This document shows, piece by piece, positions 2,391 to 33,090 of a stretch of 33,090 nucleotides of DNA. Both the position numbers and the translations under genes were made by a program. The notes under the pieces were generated by a model. It was not told the origin of the DNA and did not search any database. It worked only from the letters and a program-made list of their open reading frames with translations. Position 1 is the stretch's first letter. Each line of letters begins with the position of its first letter. Source of the stretch: Candidatus Nomurabacteria bacterium (GTDB taxonomy: Bacteria > Patescibacteriota > Minisyncoccia > Phycocordibacterales > UBA2100); contig CALRIB010000002.1 in NCBI GenBank assembly GCA_943359705.1, positions 1 through 33,090 of the forward strand, read 5' to 3'.

Positions 2391-2752
2391 GCGTGGCCAA
2401 GAAAATGATCGAGGGAAGCGACCATGCGACGGATTGCGATGAAGACGTACGCCCACAAGAACGGCAACCAGAGCGGCATCACTCCAAAAAAAGACGTGCG
2501 CTCGAATTTCTCGACACCGGTGGAGACGAACAGGTATTCAGAAATGCAGAGCATCACAAATCCGAATGCCATAAAAATGAGGTCTTTTTTGTTCTGGCCT
2601 GCTGCGAGCGCGGCGAGAATGAAAAGTGTGTAAATCGCGGTCAGTATGAAATCATTTTGTATGAGGGGAATGAGCCCGATCATGACGAGGACGGGAAGTG
2701 CATTCGCGACGAACCGCGTAAATAACCCTATTTGAGCAATGATACGCGGCAT
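2387..2752 (-). CDS. Small polytopic membrane protein, unknown function
   Basis: About 4 hydrophobic helices. Track start 2758 is GTG; ATG at 2752 has TATACT (2760-2765) 7 nt upstream. Translationally coupled to the hydrolase gene. Confidence 0.55.
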   Translation of the reverse strand: MPRIIAQIGLFTRFVANALPVLVMIGLIPLIQNDFILTAIYTLFILAALAAGQNKKDLIFMAFGFVMLCISEYLFVSTGVEKFERTSFFGVMPLWLPFLWAYVFIAIRRMVASLDHFLGHA

Positions 2753-2772
2753 TCGCACAAGTATATATCTTC

Positions 2773-2937
2773 TGGGAGAACCGGGAATCGGTCAGGAATA
2801 ATTATTTCGCCGCCGCGAAATAATTTTCACGACCCTGGCTCGGCATTTTTCGTACTCGAAAAATATGCCTGCGCCTTTCGATTCCCTCACCATAGGTGCG
2901 AAGGCACCTATGGTGCGTCCGCCTTCACTTCGTTCAG
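2773..2937 (-). repeat. tRNA-His trailer element, distal unit (unit 1)
   Basis: Colinear with unit 2. Shares the 86-bp identical block (2869-2954 = 3068-3153), a 26-nt hairpin (2800-2825), the 14-mer ACGACCCTGGCTCG (2829-2842), a second hairpin (2842-2869) and a 12-bp hairpin (2888-2915). Ends CTGACC + degenerate tRNA-His 3' end (2773-2789, 10/17). Confidence 0.7.
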
Positions 2938-3136
2938 GGCGGCCGTCGGGAATCTCCCTCGCCTCTCGGTTCGCCGCCGCGAGGAATCGGTCACAGATAT
3001 CCCATCCGCCGCCGCGGATGGGATTCCGCGACCCCGGCTCGCGGTTTCGGCCGCTGCCGAAACATCGCTGCGCCTTTCGATTCCCTCACCATAGGTGCGA
3101 AGGCACCTATGGTGCGTCCGCCTTCACTTCGTTCAG
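2938..3136 (-). repeat. tRNA-His trailer element, proximal unit (unit 2), ending in a perfect orphan copy of the tRNA-His 3' end
   Basis: Starts right after tRNA-His 3' end (3137). Contains a 12-bp hairpin (3087-3114), hairpin 3044-3063, 14-mer GCGACCCCGGCTCG (3028-3041) and a 26-nt hairpin (2999-3024). Then GTGACC + degenerate tRNA 3' end (2972-2988, 12/17), followed by a perfect 17-nt GATTCCCGACGGCCGCC copy at 2938-2954. Confidence 0.75.
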
Positions 3137-3209
3137 GGCGGCCGTCGGGAATCGAACCCGAATTGAGAGCTCCACAAGCTCCAGTGTGAACCGTTACACC
3201 ACGGTCGCC
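3137..3209 (-). tRNA. tRNA-His (anticodon GUG)
   Basis: Hand-folded cloverleaf on minus strand: G-1 plus GCGACCG acceptor (one A4:C69 mismatch), D arm GTGT/ACAC, anticodon stem GGAGC/GCTCT with loop TTGTGGA, T arm TCGGG-TTCGATT-CCCGA. No encoded CCA. Confidence 0.85.
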
Positions 3210-3251
3210 ATACGAACAATCGCTTTATAGCAGATTTGGAGAGAGAACGCG

Positions 3252-3287
3252 ATAAAACGCAGCGCCGCCCCGAAGGGGCGGCGCTGC
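3252..3287 (-). terminator. Rho-independent terminator after the DUF4383-like gene
   Basis: Perfect 13-bp GC-rich stem GCAGCGCCGCCCC-gaa-GGGGCGGCGCTGC (3259-3287), followed on the minus strand by GTTTTAT. Confidence 0.7.
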
Positions 3288-3305
3288 AAAACACGAACGG
3301 AAATA

Positions 3306-3689
3306 CTACATCGCACCCTGCATTGCCATTCCGTTCCCCTCCTTCATGCCGAAGCCGGCATAGAGAGCGACGACCGCGATCGCGAGGTGAAGGACGTTGT
3401 CGGCCATGTTGACCATGATGAGGCCGAGCACCGAGTCGCCCTGCACGAATCCGAGCACCGTGACGAGTCCGTAGACAACGCCAAAAACCTGAAAGTAAAG
3501 GCGCGTCGGAAACATCCCGTACACCGCGGCGAGTGCCGCAAGACCCGAGAGAAGGTGTATGACGTTGTGCAGACCGTCGACCTCAAAGAGACCGAGAAGC
3601 ATGCCGTTGCTTGTGAGACCCGGTATGAATCCGGCAATACCCACGACCACGAACACGATTCCGAAAATCCAACCTAATTTGTTAACCAT
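3306..3689 (-). CDS. DUF4383-like small membrane protein
   Basis: 127 aa, 4 TM. MVNKLGWIFGIVFVVVGIAGFIPGL...GLHNVIHLLSG...DNVLHLAIAV pattern recalled from DUF4383 family proteins. Confidence 0.6.
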   Translation of the reverse strand: MVNKLGWIFGIVFVVVGIAGFIPGLTSNGMLLGLFEVDGLHNVIHLLSGLAALAAVYGMFPTRLYFQVFGVVYGLVTVLGFVQGDSVLGLIMVNMADNVLHLAIAVVALYAGFGMKEGNGMAMQGAM

Positions 3690-3777
3690 ATATTTTGTAG
3701 ACTAAAAGCTGCTATATCGACCCCTGTACTCACCAATTGTGAAGCCTGCTCACGGGGAGTCAACCCCGGATTGGTAC

Positions 3778-4887
3778 TTATTTAACCTCGGTCTCCAGAT
3801 GGACCGGGCTCGACGTGGCAACAACGTTGAACGCCACGCGCCCGATGGTCTGTCCGAATGAGGTAATGACGTTGACGCGCCAACTCCCCGCGGCAGGATT
3901 CGTCTTCACGGAGTAGCCGCGGTACCCGCCGTCGCGTCCGCCGACGATGTAGAACGGTACCGTTTCCTCCGTCACCCAGGCCTTGCGGGATTCGTCGTAA
4001 AGCTGCCACTCATGGAAGATGGTGGTCGTGAGGTCGGTCGGCGCGAAGATGGCGGTGAAGACATACGCCGGCTCGTTGGGTGCGCGGTGGAAGGTGATGT
4101 TGTAGCGAAGGAAACTTTCGTACCACGGAAGCGGCTCGTAAAAAAGACGGTACTCGTCGCCCGTACGCACGACGCCGTGGTACACGCCGGCGTCTTTGAG
4201 TGCGAGCGGGAGCGGCGGTATCGCGCCCGTGAAATATAAAATGTTGAACGTCACGAAAATAACGGCGACGATGCGCGCCACGCGCGTACGCTCACTCGCC
4301 GCACGCTCGGGCGTAAAGTACGCGAGAAGATAATAGAACCCGGTAATCGCACCGAGGCTCACCACTCCGCTTGCGATAAACATGTACGGCCCGATTTCCC
4401 GAAAGACGACGGGCAAAAAGAAAATGAGAAAGGAAAAAAGTACCGTAAAGAAAATGCCGAGCTGGAACGGAAAACGGCGATAGGAGCGGACGAATCGCTC
4501 GTTGCCGAGCAAAAGCCCTGCGATGAGCAATACAAATATCCAACTCGTTTGGTACGCCGCGCTACGCGAGTAGAGCGAAAGGTAGCCGCTAAAGAGTCCG
4601 CCGAATGCGAATTGCGCAACGACCGGAATGAGCGGGGTTATTTTCAGTATCCACTTCTGCTGCAGACGACCTGTTTCGATGACATTGAGCAGAATGATGC
4701 AACACCCTGCGAGGACCAGGTAAAAAAAGAGCAGCGCATTACTCGTCCAGAGGTCGACACGACGCAAAAGAATGAGGTTGTCAGCCAAAAATCCGCCCAC
4801 CAGCGAGAAGGGCGATATGTAGCGCATGTACCACTCCGCCAGTTCTTCGACGTTCTTCGGCAGCTTTGGGAGTCGCGGGCGAGGCAT
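3778..4887 (-). CDS. Polytopic membrane protein with C-terminal DUF2914-like soluble domain
   Basis: Start set at ATG 4887 (MPRPRLPKLPK...), 1 nt after the upstream stop (4889-4891). The track extension to 4983 overlaps the upstream gene. About 7 TM helices, then a beta-rich C-terminal domain (...YRLFYEPLPWYESFLRYNITFH...WRVNVITSFGQTIGRVAFNV). Confidence 0.6.
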   Translation of the reverse strand: MPRPRLPKLPKNVEELAEWYMRYISPFSLVGGFLADNLILLRRVDLWTSNALLFFYLVLAGCCIILLNVIETGRLQQKWILKITPLIPVVAQFAFGGLFSGYLSLYSRSAAYQTSWIFVLLIAGLLLGNERFVRSYRRFPFQLGIFFTVLFSFLIFFLPVVFREIGPYMFIASGVVSLGAITGFYYLLAYFTPERAASERTRVARIVAVIFVTFNILYFTGAIPPLPLALKDAGVYHGVVRTGDEYRLFYEPLPWYESFLRYNITFHRAPNEPAYVFTAIFAPTDLTTTIFHEWQLYDESRKAWVTEETVPFYIVGGRDGGYRGYSVKTNPAAGSWRVNVITSFGQTIGRVAFNVVATSSPVHLETEVK

Positions 4888-5449: not shown

Positions 5450-5614
5450 AAAATTTCATTGGCCTTTTCCCGCCTGCCCCGTAGGCAACGCGAAGCGTTG
5501 TGGTACCGGGGTGAACAATGCCATGCGGCAATCATAGCAAAGGACACGCATAATGAAGTTGCGACAGTTGGTGCGGACTGAGAGCGTTGTGGAGTATGTT
5601 CTGTAGGACAAAAG

Positions 5615-5926
5615 CTACGGCAGTCTCCCTCCGGTCAAGAGCAAGTTCGCCCATCCTACTTGAAGAGCGCTAAACGGGTCGGGTAGGTTGAGGAGAACTA
5701 GTACTCCAACGACAGCGACGAACGCTCCCGTTGTAATGTAAAGATACGTATATTGCTTTTTGAAGTAAAAATACAAAGAGAGGCCGAGAGGGGTGAAGTG
5801 GAGAATCACCGGAGGCAGATATAAAAACAAGATGTTCAGGATAAGGGCAAGTGCTCCCACCGCAGACAGCGCTGCAACAACTAAGACCGCGAGTGCCGGC
5901 ACGATCTGTTCTTTAATGAACGTCAT
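5615..5926 (-). CDS. Small membrane protein (hypothetical)
   Basis: Start set at ATG 5926 (MTFIKEQIVPALAVLVVAAL...) because the track ORF N-terminus (to 5974) runs through tRNA-Leu. 3 hydrophobic segments. ATG is 3 nt after the tRNA-Leu 3' end. Confidence 0.45.
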   Translation of the reverse strand: MTFIKEQIVPALAVLVVAALSAVGALALILNILFLYLPPVILHFTPLGLSLYFYFKKQYTYLYITTGAFVAVVGVLVLLNLPDPFSALQVGWANLLLTGGRLP

Positions 5927-5929
5927 TTG

Positions 5930-6011
5930 TGCCCGGGAGAGGACTTGAACCTCCATGCCTTGCGGCACACGCACCTCAAGCGTGCCAGTCTACCAATTTC
6001 TGCACCCGGGC
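5930..6011 (-). tRNA. tRNA-Leu (anticodon GAG)
   Basis: Acceptor GCCCGGG/CCCGGGC, anticodon stem CACGC/GCGTG with loop TTGAGGT, long variable arm TGCCGCAAGGCA, T arm GGAGG-TTCAAGT-CCTCT. Confidence 0.85.
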
Positions 6012-6020
6012 ATTAAAGCC

Positions 6021-6698
6021 TCACAGCTTCTCCTCCACTGTACCCAAAATCTTCTTTAATTTCAATCTCTTCCGAGAAAGACACACGACGCTCTTCGAAT
6101 AGTACATTTTTCTTAAAACGACTAGAGAATCTTTTTTAGCGTACTTTAGCTGGTAGAGCACGCGATTGGCACTTCCCGATGTCACGTGTCCAGATACGCC
6201 TGTCCGTTTTCTTATTTCACTTCGAAGCCAATCAACAAACGATTTGCTAGCAGAAGCGAATATCGTATAGAACATAAAACTTGAACGCCAGCGCGGATCC
6301 CAATAGGCATGAGAACATCCATCACCGTCGTACACTCCCCTAAGAAAATCCCAAAAGTACGCGGGAGGAATTTTCAAAGGACCGATTGTCTTGGACTTTC
6401 TCGGTGTAAGACCTATTGAAAGCAGGAAATCATAAAAGACTACATTTTTGAATTGTACGCGTAGGTATTCTTTTCCATTGCTCCCCTTCTTTTTCGTGAT
6501 ATTGAAATCTACTCCGATACATATACGAAAATTGTCGAGCTGTTCGCGATCTGCAGACGTAAGATCGATGAGCGAGAATGGGGGTGAAAGGCAGCCATCG
6601 GTAGCGAGTAGCCCAATCGCGTAAGCGAGTTTTGCTGACCAGGTTTGATCTATTTTTCTTCTTGCATTAAATCCCGGTTTCGGACCCCGCTTCCCCAT
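6021..6698 (-). CDS. LAGLIDADG-family homing endonuclease (two-motif, single chain)
   Basis: Two motifs, LAYAIGLLATDGCLS and FLRGVYDGDGCSHA. Visibly lower GC than its neighbours. Stop is 9 nt upstream of the tRNA-Leu 5' end. TGaTATCAT box (6705-6713) 6 nt upstream of the ATG. Confidence 0.85.
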   Translation of the reverse strand: MGKRGPKPGFNARRKIDQTWSAKLAYAIGLLATDGCLSPPFSLIDLTSADREQLDNFRICIGVDFNITKKKGSNGKEYLRVQFKNVVFYDFLLSIGLTPRKSKTIGPLKIPPAYFWDFLRGVYDGDGCSHAYWDPRWRSSFMFYTIFASASKSFVDWLRSEIRKRTGVSGHVTSGSANRVLYQLKYAKKDSLVVLRKMYYSKSVVCLSRKRLKLKKILGTVEEKL

Positions 6699-6780
6699 CG
6701 CACAATGATATCAGATACTCAAGGTAGTAGCGTCTACCAATTGTTGATAAATAAAAAAACACGAACTCCTCTAAAAACCC

Positions 6781-7251
6781 CTATTTGTCCTGCGTCGGGG
6801 CGGTCATCTCGGCGACAATCTCTTCTTTCTCGCCTTCGGTCTCTTTTGCAAAGGTCTCCGGCACGCCGGGAGCTTCTACCGCGTCTTGTGCGGTGCCCAT
6901 CAAGCGGGTGCGGCGGAGCTGGCGGCGGGCTTCGCGCGCTACCTTGTCGCGGATGTAGTAGAGCTTGGCGCGGCGCACGCGGCTGCGCTTCGTGATTTCA
7001 ATCTTATCAATCATCGGCGAGTAGAGCGGAAAGATTTTTTCCACGCCCACTCCCGAGAGTACGCGGCGCACCGTAAAGGTGGCGCCCGCTTCGGTGCCGT
7101 GTTTGCGAGCCAAGACGAGTCCCTCGAACATCTGGAGGCGGAACTTACCCTTGGCTTCCTCGATTTTCTGCCACACGCGCACGGTGTCGCCCGGCCGAAG
7201 GTCGAGATTTTTGCGGGCTTCCATGTCTACGGATGATGTTTTCACGGCCAT
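6781..7251 (-). CDS. rplS: 50S ribosomal protein L19 with acidic C-terminal extension
   Basis: ...LRPGDTVRVWQKIEEAKGKFRLQMFEGLVLARKHGTEAGATFTVRRVLSGVGVEKIFPLYSPMIDKIEITKRSRVRRAKLYYIRD... is the L19 core. Confidence 0.9.
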   Translation of the reverse strand: MAVKTSSVDMEARKNLDLRPGDTVRVWQKIEEAKGKFRLQMFEGLVLARKHGTEAGATFTVRRVLSGVGVEKIFPLYSPMIDKIEITKRSRVRRAKLYYIRDKVAREARRQLRRTRLMGTAQDAVEAPGVPETFAKETEGEKEEIVAEMTAPTQDK

Positions 7252-26891: not shown

Positions 26892-29279
26892 CTATCGAGG
26901 GATTCGTTTGGTCTCGCCCCAATTCTTCCCTATCGAAATTTCCGCAACGATGGGCACTCCGCGTAATTGTTTTGCGTCGATTACAGATTCCATGATGCGG
27001 CGCAATTCACGGGCGATTTTCTCCGCTTCTTTCTCGTCGAGTTCGTACACCAGTTCGTCGTGCACCTGCAAGAGAAGTTCGGCCTTTTTCTCCCAGCCCT
27101 CCTTTTTGATGAACGCATCCGCCTCCGCCATCGCAAGCTTGATGATGTCGGATTGCGTCCCCTGCATCGGCGCATTGATGGCCATGCGCTCCGCTTGTGC
27201 ACGCATGTTGGGCATCGCCGATTTGAGAGCAGGAAAATAGCGACGGCGACCGAAAATCGTCTCGGTGTAGCCGAGCTTGGTAGCTTCTGCTTTCGTCTTT
27301 TCGACGTATTCCGCAAGGCCGGAGAATTTTTTGAAATAGTCGTCGAGGAATTTCTGCGCCTCGTCGCGCGTCACACTGCCGCCGAGATTTGCGCGGAGTG
27401 CATTCACGCCCATGCCGTAGAGAATGCCGAAGTTGATGACCTTGGCGCGGCGGCGCATTTCGTAGTCCACCTTTTCGGGCGGCACGCCGAAAACTTCAGA
27501 GGCCACGGCAGTGTGCACGTCGCCGCCGCTTTTGAACACTTCAATGAGTTTTTTGTCGCCCGAAAGACCTGCCGCGATTCGCAGCTCTATCTGCGAGTAG
27601 TCAATCGCCGCGAAGACCTTGCCCTTCGAGGCGGCAAATGCGCGGCGGATACGCTTGCCGTTCTCGGTCTTCACCGGAATATTTTGGAGATTCGGATTCT
27701 GACACCCCATTCGCCCGGTGGTGGTCCCTGTCTGCAAAAATTCGGCATGGAGACGGCCGTCGGGCGCGATGAGCGCGGGCATTTTCTCGATATAGGTGGA
27801 GAGAAGTTTCTGCAGTTCGCGGTATGCGAGCACTTCATCGATGATCGGGTGCAGAGACGAGAGTTTTACGAGCTCATCTTCCCGCGTCGTGCGTGCGCCG
27901 CCCGCCGTTTTCTTCTGTTTCTCGGGCAAAATTTTTAGTTCGTCGTAGAGCACGACGCCGAGTTGTTTGGGCGAGTTGATATTGAATTCGTGACCCGCGT
28001 GCGCGAAGATTCTGCCCGCGATTTTTCCAAGCTCCGTTGAATATTCTTTGGAAAGGCTTTTGAGATACGCGGTGTCCACAAAAATCCCCACCTCGTGCAT
28101 TCGCTCCACTATTCCGATAAGCGGCTTTTCTATTTTTTCGTACACGTCCTGCAGTCTTCCTGTTTTCTTCAGCGCCGCGAAGATAAACTCTCGCGCTTTT
28201 TCAAAATCCTGTGCGCCGGCGTACCGCAAAATCTCTTCGAGCGATGGGTTGGTCGTGTCTGAATGCAAAAGCCACAGCGCCACCGCGGTCTCCTTCAATA
28301 CTTGCTCGTCGGGTGCAGCGGCTTCCGGCTCCGCTTCGTACGGCTCGTCGAATGCTTCCGCCGCCACGCGGCTGATGCGTTCCTTGAGCGAACGGAATTC
28401 GAGCTCATCACACATCGCAACAGCGGTAGCCGCGTGGTCTTGAATTCTCCAATGGTGGTCGGGCAATTCGAATTTGATGGGCACGTCAGTGCGAATAGTC
28501 GCTAGCACTTTCGAAAGTGTCGCGCTCTCGCGGCCGGTCTTCAAGAGCTCCACGATCCGCGGCTTCACATCTTTGGCAAACGCGTCCGGCTCCGTGTCGA
28601 GCGACTCGTATATTTTTTCTATCGGTCCGAAACCGTCGATGAGCTCCGTCGCGGTTTTCTCGCCGATGCCGCGCACACCGATAATCCCGTCCGAAGGGTC
28701 ACCGCGAAGCGCTTTGTAATCGACGATATGTTCGGGCCCAAAACCGTAGCGCTCTCGCACGCGGTCTTCGTCGTACAAAACCGTGTCGTTCAAACCTTTG
28801 CGGAGCGTGTACACCTGCACGTGCTTCCCTTCTACGAGCTGCAACATGTCCGCATCTCCCGAGGCAATGACGACGTCGACGCCCTCCGTCTCTGCCGCCT
28901 GCTTCACGATAGAGCCCACGATGTCGTCAGCCTCAAACCCCACGGCTTCGTACACGGGAATGCCGAATGCTTCAAACACTTTCGGCGCGCGCTTGAGCTG
29001 CTCGATAAGTTCGTCATCGGCTTTCACGCGCTTCGCTTTGTATTCTTCAAACAATTCATGGCGCACCGTCGGCCCCGGCAAATCGCGCGCGGCGACGATG
29101 TAATCGGGCTCAAGGTCGTCGATGAGTTTCAACACCATCGACACGAGTCCGTAGAGCGCTCCCGTCGGCTCGCCTTTCGACGATGAAAAGTCGGGTATCG
29201 CGTGGTATGCCCGATGCAAAATGGCGTGCGAGTCGAGTATCACAAGCCGCTGCGCTTTCGACGTTTTTTTCTTCGCCAT
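26892..29279 (-). CDS. polA: DNA polymerase I (5'-3' exonuclease plus family A polymerase; intervening 3'-5' exo region short and without visible DxE motif)
   Basis: N-terminal FEN-like domain (LVILDSHAILHRAYHA..., GIGEKTA). Motif A DYSQIELRIAA, motif B RRRAKVINFGILYGM, motif C LQVHDELV. Confidence 0.9.
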   Translation of the reverse strand: MAKKKTSKAQRLVILDSHAILHRAYHAIPDFSSSKGEPTGALYGLVSMVLKLIDDLEPDYIVAARDLPGPTVRHELFEEYKAKRVKADDELIEQLKRAPKVFEAFGIPVYEAVGFEADDIVGSIVKQAAETEGVDVVIASGDADMLQLVEGKHVQVYTLRKGLNDTVLYDEDRVRERYGFGPEHIVDYKALRGDPSDGIIGVRGIGEKTATELIDGFGPIEKIYESLDTEPDAFAKDVKPRIVELLKTGRESATLSKVLATIRTDVPIKFELPDHHWRIQDHAATAVAMCDELEFRSLKERISRVAAEAFDEPYEAEPEAAAPDEQVLKETAVALWLLHSDTTNPSLEEILRYAGAQDFEKAREFIFAALKKTGRLQDVYEKIEKPLIGIVERMHEVGIFVDTAYLKSLSKEYSTELGKIAGRIFAHAGHEFNINSPKQLGVVLYDELKILPEKQKKTAGGARTTREDELVKLSSLHPIIDEVLAYRELQKLLSTYIEKMPALIAPDGRLHAEFLQTGTTTGRMGCQNPNLQNIPVKTENGKRIRRAFAASKGKVFAAIDYSQIELRIAAGLSGDKKLIEVFKSGGDVHTAVASEVFGVPPEKVDYEMRRRAKVINFGILYGMGVNALRANLGGSVTRDEAQKFLDDYFKKFSGLAEYVEKTKAEATKLGYTETIFGRRRYFPALKSAMPNMRAQAERMAINAPMQGTQSDIIKLAMAEADAFIKKEGWEKKAELLLQVHDELVYELDEKEAEKIARELRRIMESVIDAKQLRGVPIVAEISIGKNWGETKRIPR

Positions 29280-29451
29280 TACCGATGATGATACCCTTCC
29301 GGTTTTTAATGTCGAACAGGATAAAACTTACATAACAAAAGCCCTCGTCAAAAAATGACAAGGGCCCATCAAGATGCCGGCGGATCCGGAGAGACCGAAT
29401 GTCTCGAGCGATGCTCCATCTTGTAGAAAGATCAAACAGCCGGGAAACCTT

Positions 29452-29478
29452 GGCGGGGGTGTCCATGACACCCCCGCC
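29452..29478 (-). terminator. GC-rich hairpin after the orphan gene (possible terminator, weak U-tract)
   Basis: GGCGGGGGTGTC-cat-GACACCCCCGCC, 12-bp perfect stem, 17 nt downstream of the stop at 29495. No clear T-run. Confidence 0.35.
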
Positions 29479-29494
29479 GCGGCCCCAGAATCGG

Positions 29495-30025
29495 TTATTT
29501 CGTCGTAGTGGCGGACGAAAGCGCCGGTGTCGGTTTCGCAGTACCTTTCGGCATCTGCGCATCTGGGTTCGACTTCGCACCACCCACAAACTTAATTGCG
29601 AACTTTTGCTTGATGATGATGCCGTCGGGCACCACTTCTCGCGCGCGCTCATTGATGAGCTGTTCGCAAAGAGATTTGAGGGGATTCTTAGGCGAATCCG
29701 ACAAGGGGAGCGCGATACGCTCCGACTTCAATGCAATCGCCTGCATGACGACATTGGACAAAGTGCGGCGGACATGGCCGAGCTTCAGGAAATTCTCAGG
29801 CGTCGGGTCATCCCCGTCGACTAAGAGCTTCACGTAAGCGTTGGCCAGAGTCTTCGCAAACTCCGTCTCTTTGGGCGTGGACAAATTGAATCCGCGCACC
29901 TCGATGCCGTCACACAGCTGTTCTTCGACTTGCTTCCGCGCCACGCGGAAGAACCCAAAAAACCCTCTCCGCTTTGCGGGAGTCGCATTTGAAGTGGAAG
30001 TAATCGCCTTGTTGTCATTCTTCAT
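29495..30025 (-). CDS. Hypothetical protein (no recognisable domain), strongly promoted
   Basis: ATG 30025 (MKNDNKAITSTSN...) preceded by GGAG 9-12 nt upstream, one of the few clear SD sites in the window. Track start 30043 is GTG. No TM or signal peptide; Lys/Pro/Thr-rich tail. Confidence 0.6.
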   Translation of the reverse strand: MKNDNKAITSTSNATPAKRRGFFGFFRVARKQVEEQLCDGIEVRGFNLSTPKETEFAKTLANAYVKLLVDGDDPTPENFLKLGHVRRTLSNVVMQAIALKSERIALPLSDSPKNPLKSLCEQLINERAREVVPDGIIIKQKFAIKFVGGAKSNPDAQMPKGTAKPTPALSSATTTK

Positions 30026-30139
30026 GACTTTTCTCCAGCGCACATCTACAGGGGTTACCCCGGGTGCGCCTGCCAGGGCAACTCACTACGCTCGAAAAGC
30101 GCACTGAGTTGCCCTGATTTCTGGCTGTAAACTTTATAG

Positions 30140-30168
30140 AGTATAGCACTAAATGGGAGATAAGTCAA
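30140..30168 (-). promoter_or_regulatory. Near-consensus sigma-70 promoter for the orphan gene
   Basis: Minus strand TTGACT (30163-30168), 17 nt, TATACT (30140-30145). -10 context gtgcTATACTct is identical to that of the sRNA promoter at 32190-32217. Confidence 0.65.
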
Positions 30169-30237
30169 GGGCTTAAAAAGCCCACCCCCAGGCCACGAAA
30201 CAGCCCCCTCCCCCACGGGTGCGATACAATAGAAAGA

Positions 30238-31932
30238 ATGACGACGCAGTTCAACGACAAGAAACAGGACGAGCGGCTGCACGAGCTGCATGTCAAAGAG
30301 GAGGAACAGCTGGCGGAAATGCTCGCGCAGAAGTACGGCGTCGAGTACGTCGACCTCACTTCCAAATCAATCGACACCGACGCACTGCGCCTCATCTCGC
30401 AGGCCGAGTCGGAGGCGAGTGAAGTGGCGGCCTTTCGAAAGATAAACAAAAAAATATTCGTCGGCATGCGGTCGCCCGAACGCGACGATTCCCTCAAGTC
30501 GATACAAACGCTTGAACACCTCGGCTACCAGGTGCAGCGCTTCATCGTCTCGCACGCTTCCCTCGTGCATGCGTGGGATAGATATCACGACCTCTCGTAC
30601 GCGACCGAGACAGAAGCCGGCGTGCTCACACTTTCCAACGAAGTTATCCAGCAGATGTTGCAGAAATTGAAGGCGCTCGAAGACGTGCGCACCGAGATCG
30701 GGGGCTTCTCTACGAGCAAAGACACGCACCGCATCTCGCGCATCTTGGAAGTCATCATGGCCGGCGCGCTTAGCTTAGGTGCCTCCGACGTGCACATGGA
30801 ACCGGAAGAAGAGGGTGTGCGCATGCGGTATCGTCTCGACGGTGTGCTCATCGAAGTCTTGATATTCGACGCCGTCACCTACGGCCTCATTTCCTCGCGT
30901 ATCAAATTGCTCTCCGGCCTCAAGCTCAACATAAAAAACGCCGCGCAAGACGGACGCTTTTCGATTCAAGTGAGCGAGAAAGAAATTGAAATACGTACTT
31001 CTATTCTTCCCGGCGCGTACGCGGAAACTATCGTGATGCGTATTTTGGACCCGACCACCATCGCACTTCCCATGGAGCGCCTAGGTTTTGATAAATATCT
31101 GATGGATATTTTCAATATCGAAATCGCAAAGCCAAACGGCATGATACTGAACACCGGCCCCACCGGCTCGGGTAAAACGACGACGCTGTACGCCTTCCTA
31201 AGGCAGGTCGCCAACCCCGGTATCAAAGTGGTCACTATCGAAGACCCTATCGAATATCACCTGCCCGGCATCGTGCAAACGCAAGTTTCCAAAGACTACA
31301 CTTTTGCCGAAGGCCTCCGCTCCACTCTCCGCCAAGACCCCGACGTCATCATGGTGGGTGAAATTCGCGACGCCGAAGTGGCTTCCACTGCCATCAACGC
31401 GTCACTAACTGGGCACTTGGTATTTTCTACGCTTCACACCAACGACGCCGGCGGCACCTTCCCCCGCCTCATCGACATGGGTGTGAACGCTGACATCTTG
31501 GGCGCCGCGGTCACAACGGCGATGGCACAACGCCTCGTACGACGCCTCTGCCCGCACTGCCGCGAGGAAAAAATAATGGATGATGCAGAAAAAGCGCTGA
31601 TGGCACCGCTGCTCGCCAGCATCCCCCATCCCGAGGAAGTCCCCCCAAACAGAGACAAGATGTGGATAGCAAAAGGTTGCGCAAAATGCGGCGGCATCGG
31701 GTACAAAGGCCGCATCGCGGTCGTGGAAGTTATTCTCATGGACAAAGAAGTGGAAGAGTGTGTGCGCCATACCTCATCCGAGCGCGACATTTGGCACGCC
31801 GCCAAGCACCAAAAAATCCGCCGCATGTCGCAGGACGGCGCCGTGAAAGTGTTGCAAGGCGTTACCACCCTCGACGAACTCGGCCGTGTCGTCGACCTCC
31901 ACGACGAAGTGATGTTGGAAACTATTTCGTAG
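30238..31932 (+). CDS. pilB: Type IV pilus assembly ATPase PilB (GspE family)
   Basis: Walker A GPTGSGKTTTLYA, Asp box/Walker B DPDVIMVGEIRD, His box GHLVFSTLHTNDA, tetra-Cys CPHC...CAKCGGIGYKGR. TACAAT 7 nt upstream of the ATG. Confidence 0.9.
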   Translation: MTTQFNDKKQDERLHELHVKEEEQLAEMLAQKYGVEYVDLTSKSIDTDALRLISQAESEASEVAAFRKINKKIFVGMRSPERDDSLKSIQTLEHLGYQVQRFIVSHASLVHAWDRYHDLSYATETEAGVLTLSNEVIQQMLQKLKALEDVRTEIGGFSTSKDTHRISRILEVIMAGALSLGASDVHMEPEEEGVRMRYRLDGVLIEVLIFDAVTYGLISSRIKLLSGLKLNIKNAAQDGRFSIQVSEKEIEIRTSILPGAYAETIVMRILDPTTIALPMERLGFDKYLMDIFNIEIAKPNGMILNTGPTGSGKTTTLYAFLRQVANPGIKVVTIEDPIEYHLPGIVQTQVSKDYTFAEGLRSTLRQDPDVIMVGEIRDAEVASTAINASLTGHLVFSTLHTNDAGGTFPRLIDMGVNADILGAAVTTAMAQRLVRRLCPHCREEKIMDDAEKALMAPLLASIPHPEEVPPNRDKMWIAKGCAKCGGIGYKGRIAVVEVILMDKEVEECVRHTSSERDIWHAAKHQKIRRMSQDGAVKVLQGVTTLDELGRVVDLHDEVMLETIS

Positions 31933-31942
31933 CTCGCGTTAG

Positions 31943-32183
31943 ACCACAAAACCCCGTTGCGGGTATGCAACGGGGTGATATGTTTGAAATAGGAAAACGG
32001 AGGCAGGATTATCCGAGCGATACTTTCGATGAGGAAAGCTGCAACGTGGATCTAAGGATAGAGGTAGCCGAAACCACCTCGTCCTCGAAAAAGTCACTAT
32101 CGCTCGGAAAATCACGCCTCCGTCTTTGCCCTGCATAGCTTTGCGCGACACGGGGTTGATGTAAAAACTGAGATTCTTAGCCA
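31943..32183 (-). ncRNA. Candidate small RNA of about 240 nt, family unknown
   Basis: Consensus promoter (32190-32217) and terminator (31951-31976) on the same strand with no start codon at the TSS. Interior forms a long nested rod: ACGGAGGC/GCCTCCGT (31997-32004 with 32116-32123), CCGAGCGATA/TATCGCTCGG (32013-32022 with 32098-32107), then TTCGA/TCGAA and further inner pairs. Confidence 0.55.
31951..31976. terminator. Intrinsic terminator hairpin shared by pilB (+) and the candidate sRNA (-)
   Basis: ACCCCGTTGC-gggtat-GCAACGGGGT. Flanked by AAAA on the plus side, so the minus-strand transcript ends ...GGGGUUUUGUGG. Confidence 0.65.
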
Positions 32184-32189
32184 GAGGAG

Positions 32190-32217
32190 AGTATAGCACG
32201 TTACGCATTAATGTCAA
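32190..32217 (-). promoter_or_regulatory. Consensus sigma-70 promoter driving the candidate sRNA
   Basis: Minus strand TTGACA (32212-32217), 16 nt, TATACT (32190-32195). Confidence 0.65.
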
Positions 32218-32267
32218 GAGTCCGAGCCTTCGCTCCCCGCTTCGGCGGCGCAGTAAAGCCTCAATAT

Positions 32268-33090
32268 ATGACCGACAAAGAGCAAAAAACCTTCGAAAAG
32301 ACCCCCCGTTCCCTCGACCAGGCGCTCCGCCCTGATACCTGGAAAGAGTACGTAGGCCAGGAAGCCATCAAGGAGAACCTCCGCATCCTCCTCACCGCCG
32401 CCAAGGGGCGCAACCACCAGCCCGAGCACGTCCTTTTGTATGGACCGCCCGGATTGGGCAAGACGACCCTCGCACATCTAATGACGAAGGAGATAGGCGC
32501 CAACATGCGCGCCACTTCGGGCCCCGCCATCGAGCGCGTGGGCGACCTCGCCTCAATACTGACCAACCTCTCCCCCGGCGATGTTCTATTTATAGACGAG
32601 ATACATCGCCTCAATCGCACTATCGAAGAAGTGCTCTACCCCGCGATGGAGTCGGGCGTCTTGGACATCGTCATTGGCAAAGGGCCGAGCGCGCGCACTG
32701 TGCAACTTGAGCTTCCGCCTTTTACACTCATTGCGGCGACCACGAGAATTTCCATGCTCTCCGCGCCGCTGCGCTCTCGCTTTTCCGGCGGCACGTTCCG
32801 TTTGCAGTACTACACCGAGAATGAAATTGCGGAGATTTTGAAGCGCTCAGCAAAAATTCTGGGCATCGAAGTCGATGGCGCGTCGGTGCAAGAAATCGCA
32901 CGCCGCTCGCGTGCGACGCCGCGCACCGCCAACTACCTTTTGAAACGCGGACGCGACTTTGCGGCGGTGAGCGGAGAGAATTTGGATATCAAAACGGTGA
33001 AAAAAGCGCTCGCACTATTGGAGATAGACGAAGCGGGGCTCAACCAGACCGACCGCGACATCCTCGTTATCCTCGTCGAGAAATTCAATG
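32268..33090 (+). CDS. ruvB: Holliday junction DNA helicase RuvB (3' end outside window)
   Basis: My translation from ATG 32268: MTDKEQKTFEKTPRSLDQALRPDTWKEYVGQEAIKENLRILLTAAKGRNHQPEHVLLYGPPGLGKTTLAHL...VLFIDEIHRL...LIAATTR... Frame is open to the window end. Not in the ORF track because it is truncated. Confidence 0.9.
   Translation, partial: MTDKEQKTFEKTPRSLDQALRPDTWKEYVGQEAIKENLRILLTAAKGRNHQPEHVLLYGPPGLGKTTLAHLMTKEIGANMRATSGPAIERVGDLASILTNLSPGDVLFIDEIHRLNRTIEEVLYPAMESGVLDIVIGKGPSARTVQLELPPFTLIAATTRISMLSAPLRSRFSGGTFRLQYYTENEIAEILKRSAKILGIEVDGASVQEIARRSRATPRTANYLLKRGRDFAAVSGENLDIKTVKKALALLEIDEAGLNQTDRDILVILVEKFN

Follow-up and report, generated by a model that had tools for sequence, protein, structure and literature searches.

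What occupies the 335-nucleotide (nt) spacer between pilB and ruvB in the 33,090-nt stretch of contig CALRIB010000002.1 that we analysed (the window)? Both flanking genes lie on the plus strand, with the pilB stop codon at 31930-31932 and the ruvB ATG at 32268. A preliminary description had proposed that the opposite strand carries a promoter-to-terminator unit for a structured, rod-like RNA of about 240 nt, and had tied this proposal to conservation of the helices in relatives. Our analysis leaves almost no doubt that the spacer holds a real gene for a structured non-coding RNA (ncRNA). As judged from compensatory changes among homologues, the product folds into a defined junction on the minus strand that is under purifying selection, and the proposed unit is supported by its predicted transcription signals, its fold and its covariation alike. 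The rod itself has to be given up, since the conserved structure is a three-way junction. As to the nature of the gene, we regard as an evenly balanced proposition that it is an independent minus-strand gene for a structured ncRNA of about 240 nt, the founding member of a family absent from the catalogues and spread over Candidatus Kaiserbacteria and related Paceibacteria, and that it acts in trans, probably via a protein.

Conserved fold, strand and distribution of the RNA

By its PilB relatives the window belongs to Candidatus Kaiserbacteria (Patescibacteria or candidate phyla radiation, CPR). For comparison we used 80 species-level genome loci of this type with 70-86% PilB identity; all sequences compared are metagenome-assembled. 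An nhmmer search with the spacer, followed by an iterated profile, recovered one homologous stretch in 74 of the 80 loci, always on the strand opposite to pilB. On A1, a MAFFT alignment of 70 distinct cores made without structural information, RNAalifold predicted 39 pairs, 31 of them with compensatory double changes, and a 40-pair version on the same alignment likewise has double changes at 31 of its 40 pairs. Paired cells make up 95.3% of A1, as against 43-46% when the partners are slid by 1-3 columns and 81% in shuffles; the covariation score is 0.50 versus about 0.11 in the control, and none of 500 shuffles reaches any of these measures. In an alignment of 99 sequences fitted to a covariance model (A3), 96.4% of cells are paired and the covariation score is 0.52. 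Conservation of helices in relatives is hence present, with covariation. A mutual-information scan recovered almost only modelled pairs, plus one wobble exchanging G·U for A·C; it revealed no pseudoknot and no long-range covariation outside the nested helices.

The conserved core of about 131 nt (32126-31994) comprises a closing stem P1, an arm built of P2, P2a and P2b, and a hairpin P3. P1 is about 28 base pairs (bp) long, its 5' strand (32099-32126) pairing with 32021-31994, and 17 of its 18 modelled pairs show compensatory changes; it corresponds to an inverted repeat (31994-32022 / 32098-32126) of 29 nt with 86% complementarity. The symmetric 8x8 internal loops that had been described in this region turn out to be mostly paired (G-U, G-C, A-U), and the pairs covary in relatives. 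P2 joins GUGAC (32093-32097) to GUUGC (32045-32041) by 5 bp, among them two wobble pairs that are readable on the minus strand only, and shows covariation (A-U to G-C, C-G to U-A). A 4 x 5 internal loop separates P2 from P2a; its U-rich strand UUUU and the P2a 5' strand UC-G-AGGA-C occupy 32081-32092, and the P2a 3' strand UA-UCCU-UA-GA, followed by the loop strand UCCAC, occupies 32046-32060. The arm ends in the apical hairpin P2b, GAGGUGG-UUUCG-GCUACCUC (32061-32080), whose length varies among relatives and whose stem pairs covary with 4-5 pair types. P3, CUUUC-CUCAUC-GAAAG (32023-32038), has a variable loop and compensatory changes in its stem (U-A to A-U, C-G to U-A).

Three other pairings were considered. 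The inner rod pairing TTCGA/TCGAA and CGAGG/CCTCA of the preliminary description (UUUCGAGGA with UCCUCAUCGAAA) is unconserved, and is specific to the window because it depends on the window's own P3 loop CUCAUC. An alternative GGAC/GUCC pairing (32084-32081 with 32051-32048) has unconserved partner columns. Were the P3 3' strand to pair with the U-rich loop, the P3 change CUUUC to CAUUC should be mirrored in that loop, and it is not.

Outside P2a the helix sequences drift, a single position showing as many as five pair types. P2a itself is nearly invariant, with C-C-G-A-G-G-A-C-G (32088-32080; the first C is U in the window) facing C-U-A-U-C-C-U-U-A-G-G (32061-32051). Conservation within the family peaks here: on the 5' strand C, AGGA and G, and on the 3' strand UCCU and AG, each reach at least 90%. 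Its irregularities are kept as well. The bulged A32053 is retained in 97 of 99 sequences, C32081 lies opposite U32060-A32059 in a 1x2 loop, and the wobble G32086·U32054 exchanges with its isosteric counterpart A·C (counts: 66 G·U, 18 A·C, 9 G-C and 4 A-U). At the P2b apex, a G·U / G-C / U·G stack closes a UUCG loop in the window; its G-C pair never varies among the 98 distinct sequences, the wobbles on either side are retained, and the loop may be UUCG, CUUG or a longer insertion. Unlike the irregular P2a helix, the terminal loops of P2b and P3 are unconserved. Variable loops around an invariant irregular helix are the pattern of protein-recognised or tertiary-structured RNAs, not that of small RNAs (sRNAs) that pair through a seed.

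The minus-strand RNA of 243 nt folds at -100.8 kcal/mol (z = -8.2), and none of 200 shuffles folds as well; the plus strand of the same region gives z = -5.1. That the minus strand is the one read is indicated by model scores, by the balance of wobble pairs and by the promoter described below. Our covariance model R1, built from 70 sequences with the window among them, matches the window over its full length on the minus strand with 125.8 bits (E ~1e-28, a rough value like the others from a shortened calibration) and the plus strand with 32.5 bits. Among the 80 genome loci it gives 73 matches at 68-142 bits and one partial copy, with plus-strand echoes of at most 41 bits; over genome loci and metagenome contigs together the minus-strand scores span 68-147 bits. 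Within the helices, G·U cells outnumber A·C cells by 232 to 50, which likewise points to the minus strand.

Six genome loci gave no match: two end at pilB, one has an N run and three truly lack the core. The N run (L065, about 5590-6167) lies exactly at the expected core, between ruvB and a leftover CACGATAGCACCCCC motif, and may be due either to a gap in the scaffold or to masking. A pattern scan of metagenome contigs that made no use of synteny gave 80 loci, 39 of them true R1 matches. Wherever the contig is long enough, the RNA is convergent with pilB and divergent from ruvB, also in low-GC lineages whose PilB is 54-57% identical. Three further low-GC Paceibacteria loci, found via PilB homologues, carry the RNA at 28.7-52.5 bits. 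The three-way junction P1 / P2-P2a-P2b / P3, the invariant P2a and the strand opposite to pilB and ruvB together mark the window RNA as a member of the R1 family. In 73 of 75 genome loci the core lies less than 400 nt upstream of ruvB and divergent from it, the remaining two being cut by contig ends. Towards pilB, unrelated genes spanning 0.3-3.6 kb intervene in about 40% of loci; low-GC relatives carry the RNA 6-40 nt away from the pilB 3' end or overlapping it. In one low-GC locus (L084:2397-2565, pilB 2511-4256) the pilB stop codon falls inside the P1 3' strand, a tail-to-tail overlap of about 45 nt, and P1 followed by a U-run seems to act as the terminator. In some low-GC relatives a small additional hairpin separates P1 from P2.

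The signals expected of an independent gene accompany the core. On the minus strand, a -35 hexamer TTGACA (32217-32212) is followed, after a 16-nt spacer ending in TGC, by TATACT (32195-32190), so that an extended -10 element TG-C-TATACT spans 32190-32198. This candidate promoter agrees with the consensus at 11 of 12 positions in addition to the TG; it is the sole 11/12 match, hence the best, across the 33-kb window, and its -35 box lies 50 nt from the ruvB start. TTGAC[AT]-N(15-18)-(TG)nTAnnnT precedes the core in 72 of 75 homologues, with the TGnTAnnnT form kept. Transcription would begin near 32183, as placed by the -10 box. The 5' leader (32127-32183), which carries the segment AACCCCGU, has no start codon at leaderless distance, its first ATG (32136) lying about 47 nt past the predicted start, as the preliminary description had stated in substance. 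Among relatives the leader measures 11-111 nt and is without sequence conservation.

At the other end stands a predicted intrinsic terminator (31943-31976), ACCCCGUUGC-AUACCC-GCAACGGGGU with the U-tract UUUGUGGU. Its hairpin (31976-31951) has 10 bp, 7 of them G-C, a 6-nt loop and the tail UUUGUGGUCU; it has a terminator score in either orientation, and with its U-tract ends 11 nt beyond the pilB stop codon. A stringent hairpin and U-run occurs within 300 nt past the core in 60 of 75 homologues (median 64 nt). Kaiserbacteria proper share the 3' hairpin sequence AAC[GA]AUA[GA]CAC-CCnnUUGC-loop-GCAAnnGGG-UUUUGUGGUGUAAA, whose stem pairs covary among CCCCG/CGGGG, CCCGA/UCGGG and CCGCA/UGCGG. The linker before it (31977-31993) ends in ACAUAUCAC, the window's version of the motif AAC[GA]AUA[GA]CAC, which could lengthen the hairpin by pairing with the UUUUGUGGU U-tail. 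Promoter, hairpin with U-tract and inverted repeats are all found where they had been placed, and so are the complementary segments AACCCCGT / ACGGGGTT (31950-31957 / 32150-32157). The closing helix or anti-terminator that had been suggested from the latter, between AACCCCGU (32150-32157) and the terminator arm (31950-31957), is probably a chance pairing, the leader being conserved neither in sequence nor in length.

A protein partner and the competing explanations

Comparison with known RNAs gave no identity. At the gathering score, Rfam 15 finds in the whole window only seven transfer RNAs (tRNAs); at E<=10, on the region, seven divergent relatives and six further loci, it returns terminator-driven noise only (anti-hemB, amino-acid leaders, rimP). 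For signal recognition particle (SRP) RNA, whether 4.5S or large, there is no Rfam match, and the arm apex varies (UUCG, CUUG, insertions) and forms no domain IV GNRA-type tetraloop. ARAGORN finds no transfer-messenger RNA (tmRNA) in 31500-32600, nor does Rfam; RNase P RNA is likewise without an Rfam match, and the core measures only about 131 nt, where at least 200-400 nt would be expected, with no covariation beyond the nested helices. A riboswitch or cis-regulatory leader was rejected, since downstream lie the convergent pilB 3' end or unrelated genes on either strand, and ruvB is divergent. In the literature searched on CPR, Patescibacteria and Kaiserbacteria we found no report of a 6S RNA, ncRNA or structured RNA relevant here, and the 224-motif paper mentions neither ruvB and pilB nor these phyla.

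We propose that transcription starts at the near-consensus sigma-70-type promoter with its extended -10 element and ends at the conserved hairpin and U-tract, and that the product would act in trans, as RNA. P2a and the P2b apex would form a recognition surface for a protein, the RNA serving as a ribonucleoprotein scaffold or as a protein-sequestering regulator, while P1, P3 and the 3' hairpin would supply stability. A protein partner is suggested because a bulged A, a wobble kept in its geometry and a small asymmetric loop are conserved inside a helix, and the terminal loops vary. A wobble geometry conserved between G·U and A·C is a typical feature of sites recognised by proteins or metals. 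Similarly, SRP RNA domain IV and the Ro-binding stem of Y RNA present an invariant bulged or non-canonical helix flanked by covarying helices. The window RNA differs from SRP RNA in lacking the domain IV motif and a conserved GNRA-type apex and in an arm order unlike that of the S domain, and it has no Y RNA match. For protein binding as the mechanism, read from these sequence patterns, our estimate reaches an even chance at best or falls just short of it.

Several points weigh against this proposal. The promoter and the terminator, from which we infer expression, rest on consensus matches, and the locus has no linked RNA-binding gene. A ligand pocket would account for the invariant helix equally well, as would an RNA-RNA contact that is exposed on unfolding, and so deep a linkage to ruvB and pilB might reflect a local role in cis instead of one in trans. 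Furthermore, the core is absent at the locus in L066 (168-nt spacer), L072 (only the 3' hairpin left) and L073, and the copy L007:6319-6470 has lost the outer P1 5' strand, with the 3' strand kept and the promoter fused to inner P1, and still scores 100 bits. From these absences and this loss it follows that the RNA is dispensable or able to move.

The alternative that survives best, though we consider it unlikely, is that the RNA is the 6S RNA of its lineage or a functional analogue, that is, an open-promoter mimic that binds the sigma-70-type holoenzyme and templates product RNAs. P1 would then be the closing stem, P3 the 3'-side bubble hairpin and P2a/P2b the internal stem, with P2 melting into the bubble. 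Several features are shared with 6S RNA (SsrS; RF00013, 6S-Flavo RF01685): a stand-alone, single-copy gene with a strong promoter, here the strongest of the window, 130-250 nt long and not strictly essential, 6S RNA being dispensable as this RNA is in a few genomes. Core (131-160 nt) and transcript (about 200-300 nt) are of suitable size, the inner helix has conserved irregularities, and a long closing stem formed from 5' and 3' parts adjoins a small 3'-side hairpin. Many 6S RNAs, for example those of E. coli and Aquifex, carry such a hairpin beside the closing stem. P2 is also weak, with two wobbles in its 5 bp, and unpaired U residues that are conserved in the 5' strand might provide a start site; that no paper was found reporting a 6S RNA in the CPR leaves room for such a molecule. 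Yet no 6S-type Rfam model (RF00013 and related) matches the window or 13 relatives, at the gathering score or at E<=10. The 6S-like shape suggested earlier also fails at its centre, where covariation closes the would-be bubble: P2 and P2a are formed inside it, and the largest unpaired region measures about 4-5 x 5-6 nt, against at least 10 nt per side in a bubble. Moreover, the L007 copy lacks half of the supposed closing stem, and instead of an open bubble the window RNA has a three-way junction, with four-way junctions in low-GC relatives and in the Moranbacteria analogues described below.

A base-pairing regulator would be a still less probable explanation, be it an sRNA acting in trans or a cis-antisense RNA that uncouples or tunes pilB-ruvB read-through or the pilB 3' end. 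The arrangement of a convergent pilB and a divergent ruvB around the RNA is kept down to 54-57% PilB identity, the proximity to or overlap with the pilB 3' end in low-GC relatives would suit such a role, and UCCU and GAGGA resemble anti-Shine-Dalgarno and Shine-Dalgarno sequences. However, the terminal loops, which are the usual seed sites, vary, and the conserved bases are locked in a covarying helix. The unrelated genes between RNA and pilB in about 40% of loci also speak against it, as does the conserved terminator, which would end transcription ahead of pilB, and neither G·U-containing helices nor compensatory changes would be selected for if the role were purely antisense.

Very unlikely, in our estimate, is a ligand sensor of the riboswitch type, in which the 3' hairpin would be a regulated terminator governing antisense read-through into pilB or the abundance of an sRNA. 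The core is aptamer-like, with helices covarying around few invariant irregular positions and a terminator 3' of it, and there is precedent, since the antisense RNAs and sRNAs B12-AspocR and EutX/Rli55 are riboswitch-controlled. But no gene in the same orientation lies downstream, and no anti-terminator is conserved, the pairing proposed earlier sitting in the unconserved leader. The linker between core and terminator, moreover, ranges from about 10 to more than 100 nt and takes up optional modules, and in low-GC relatives the U-run directly follows P1.

Barely credible, even taken jointly, are a plus-strand element (pilB 3' or ruvB 5' untranslated region, or bidirectional terminator), for which the stable plus-strand fold and the terminator score on both strands may be cited, a DNA palindrome or miniature inverted-repeat transposable element (MITE), and a 66-92-codon open reading frame (ORF; 32217/32136-31939), when minus-strand model scores are 3-4 times higher, G·U far exceeds A·C, the minus-strand promoter is conserved, the element is single-copy and the reading frame is not kept. 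As for copy number, we found one copy in the 33-kb window and one per locus, at the same site, in about 1.3 Mb of related DNA, which also rejects a repetitive extragenic palindromic (REP) type of dispersed repeat; blastn against phage and plasmid collections gave no match, and a viral pattern scan gave three chance pattern matches, none of which fits R1. The preliminary description had named dispersed copies and conservation of the 66-codon ORF (32136-31939) as signs of a MITE and of a coding gene, respectively, and neither was found. Stops interrupt all three frames of the core in 31 of 75 homologues, the open frame differs among the remaining ones, and the length changes of P2b are not multiples of three. 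The coding reading can point to one relative (L204), where a public annotation calls a 59-aa ORF (6616-6795, minus strand) over the 3' half of the RNA (6694-6862) and the pilB end; the call has no Pfam match and is probably spurious.

Returning to a structured RNA that acts with a protein, the family is new within a known kind, the stand-alone structured bacterial sRNA, and is absent from Rfam 15. In covariation it is as clear-cut as textbook families, and the genes around it keep an unusually rigid arrangement. The raiA motif RNA is an orphan structured bacterial ncRNA (PMC10861870). Like it and OLE, the window RNA was discovered by comparative genomics and combines strong covariation, modular variable insertions and lineage-wide conservation in an independent unit with no obvious function. 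It differs from both in being unrelated in sequence and structure (no Rfam match), smaller, confined to Patescibacteria and locked in the pilB / ruvB neighbourhood.

Patescibacteria account for a large share of bacterial diversity, have tiny genomes and are almost all uncultivated. To our knowledge, essentially no regulatory RNAs have been described from them, and we know of no CPR 6S RNA. An RNA that is single-copy, has the strongest local promoter and is retained in streamlined genomes down to about 55% PilB identity must do something that the cells need. The covariance model and structure provide an annotation handle for a gene that is now mis-called as a small ORF or left blank, and the invariant helix is a defined bait for finding a partner. 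The family is thereby a test case for a CPR 6S-type polymerase regulator versus a lineage-specific ribonucleoprotein.

A positional analogue in Candidatus Moranbacteria

In Candidatus Moranbacteria, a spacer of 360-414 nt upstream of ruvB carries a minus-strand promoter (TTGACA-N17-TATGCTAAnAT), an RNA core of about 145 nt and a terminator. The five loci (L207:8050-8330, L208:4546-4860, L209:4549-4900, L210:4537-4905 and L211:5552-5920, all on the minus strand) lie upstream of ruvB in divergent orientation, in most cases directly behind pilB, whose product here is a tandem ATPase duplication of about 1010 aa. The same four-way junction is found in each of the five genomes, with 47 pairs, 18 of which show double changes among these five sequences.

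This RNA resembles that of the window in position, strand, promoter type, closing stem, long arm and 3' hairpin, and shares with it an identical GGU-UUCG-GCU apex and a UUCCU strand in the arm. It differs by its four-way junction, with an extra hairpin whose loop is CUUCUAUCUUUU. With filters off, R1 scores the Moranbacteria RNAs at 12-14 bits and the Moranbacteria model R2 scores the window at 13.8 bits, which is not significant (E 0.1-0.9). Neither model finds the other group, and we therefore call the Moranbacteria RNA a positional and architectural analogue. Homology of the two is plausible; the low-GC relatives with an extra hairpin between P1 and P2 look intermediate toward the Moranbacteria form. 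In L036, an R2 match of 24 bits (E ~0.004; 6610-6730, minus strand) stands about 700 nt away from the RNA of the locus itself (5771-5934); it could be a hairpin matched by chance.

If the two were homologous, a class-wide Paceibacteria RNA would emerge. A wider reading, which we hold to be doubtful though worth stating, makes them one ancient ribonucleoprotein RNA of the whole class Paceibacteria ('Parcubacteria'), CPR-specific and housekeeping or globally regulatory, fixed beside ruvB-yebC-ruvC since before the orders diverged. Under it, the RNA may possibly be the 6S-type polymerase regulator so far missing from the lineage, with a junction in place of the bubble, or the RNA subunit of another complex.

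Peripheral modules and neighbouring genes

Around the core, peripheral modules have been gained and lost, namely P2b length, a CCUGAGC...GUCGAAGG hairpin and 3' extensions. By analogy, SRP RNA, Y RNA and 6S RNA evolve likewise, with modules varying freely around an invariant helix. The second of these modules, CCUGAGC-nnn-GUCGAAGG, is an optional linker element of about 20 nt that occurs in L074, L054, L026, L016, L008, L024, L056, L035 and others and is absent from the window; it can fold as a hairpin with tandem G·A/A·G-like pairs. In about ten relatives (L027, L015, L004, L021, L023, L039, L031, L058, L035 and L051) an insert splits the arms of the 3' hairpin, 100-700 nt downstream of the core. 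These inserts range from about 90 nt to several hundred, take the form CACCCCGUU-AGAAA...UUUCU-AACGGGG, and have in common a GAAGCGCG...CGCGCUUC hairpin and a UGGCAA-N-AUGUCG motif. Several adjoin small plus-strand ORFs of an MKRNEEHR... family, and the 3' hairpin looks like an insertion hot spot.

The convergent neighbour pilB (30238-31932, plus strand) encodes a type IV pilus or type II secretion system ATPase with an MshEN domain (Pfam T2SSE, 6e-112, and MshEN). The divergent neighbour ruvB (32268-33090, plus strand), identified by Pfam RuvB_N (3e-71) plus the lid, runs off the window and is the first gene of a ruvB-yebC-ruvC operon; polA and tsaE lie beyond the far side of pilB. The order polA, (tsaE), small ORF, pilB, RNA, ruvB, yebC, ruvC is common to Kaiserbacteria and other Paceibacteria (window 26892-33090, L204-L206 and L207-L211). 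The runner-up promoter match of the window, TTGACT-17-TATACT with TG (10/12, minus strand, 30140-30168), stands upstream of an ORF of 182 aa (29495-30043) that has no Pfam match and is divergent from pilB. The seven tRNA genes of the 33-kb window are located at 3137, 5930, 7507, 7625, 14035, 20353 and 24624.

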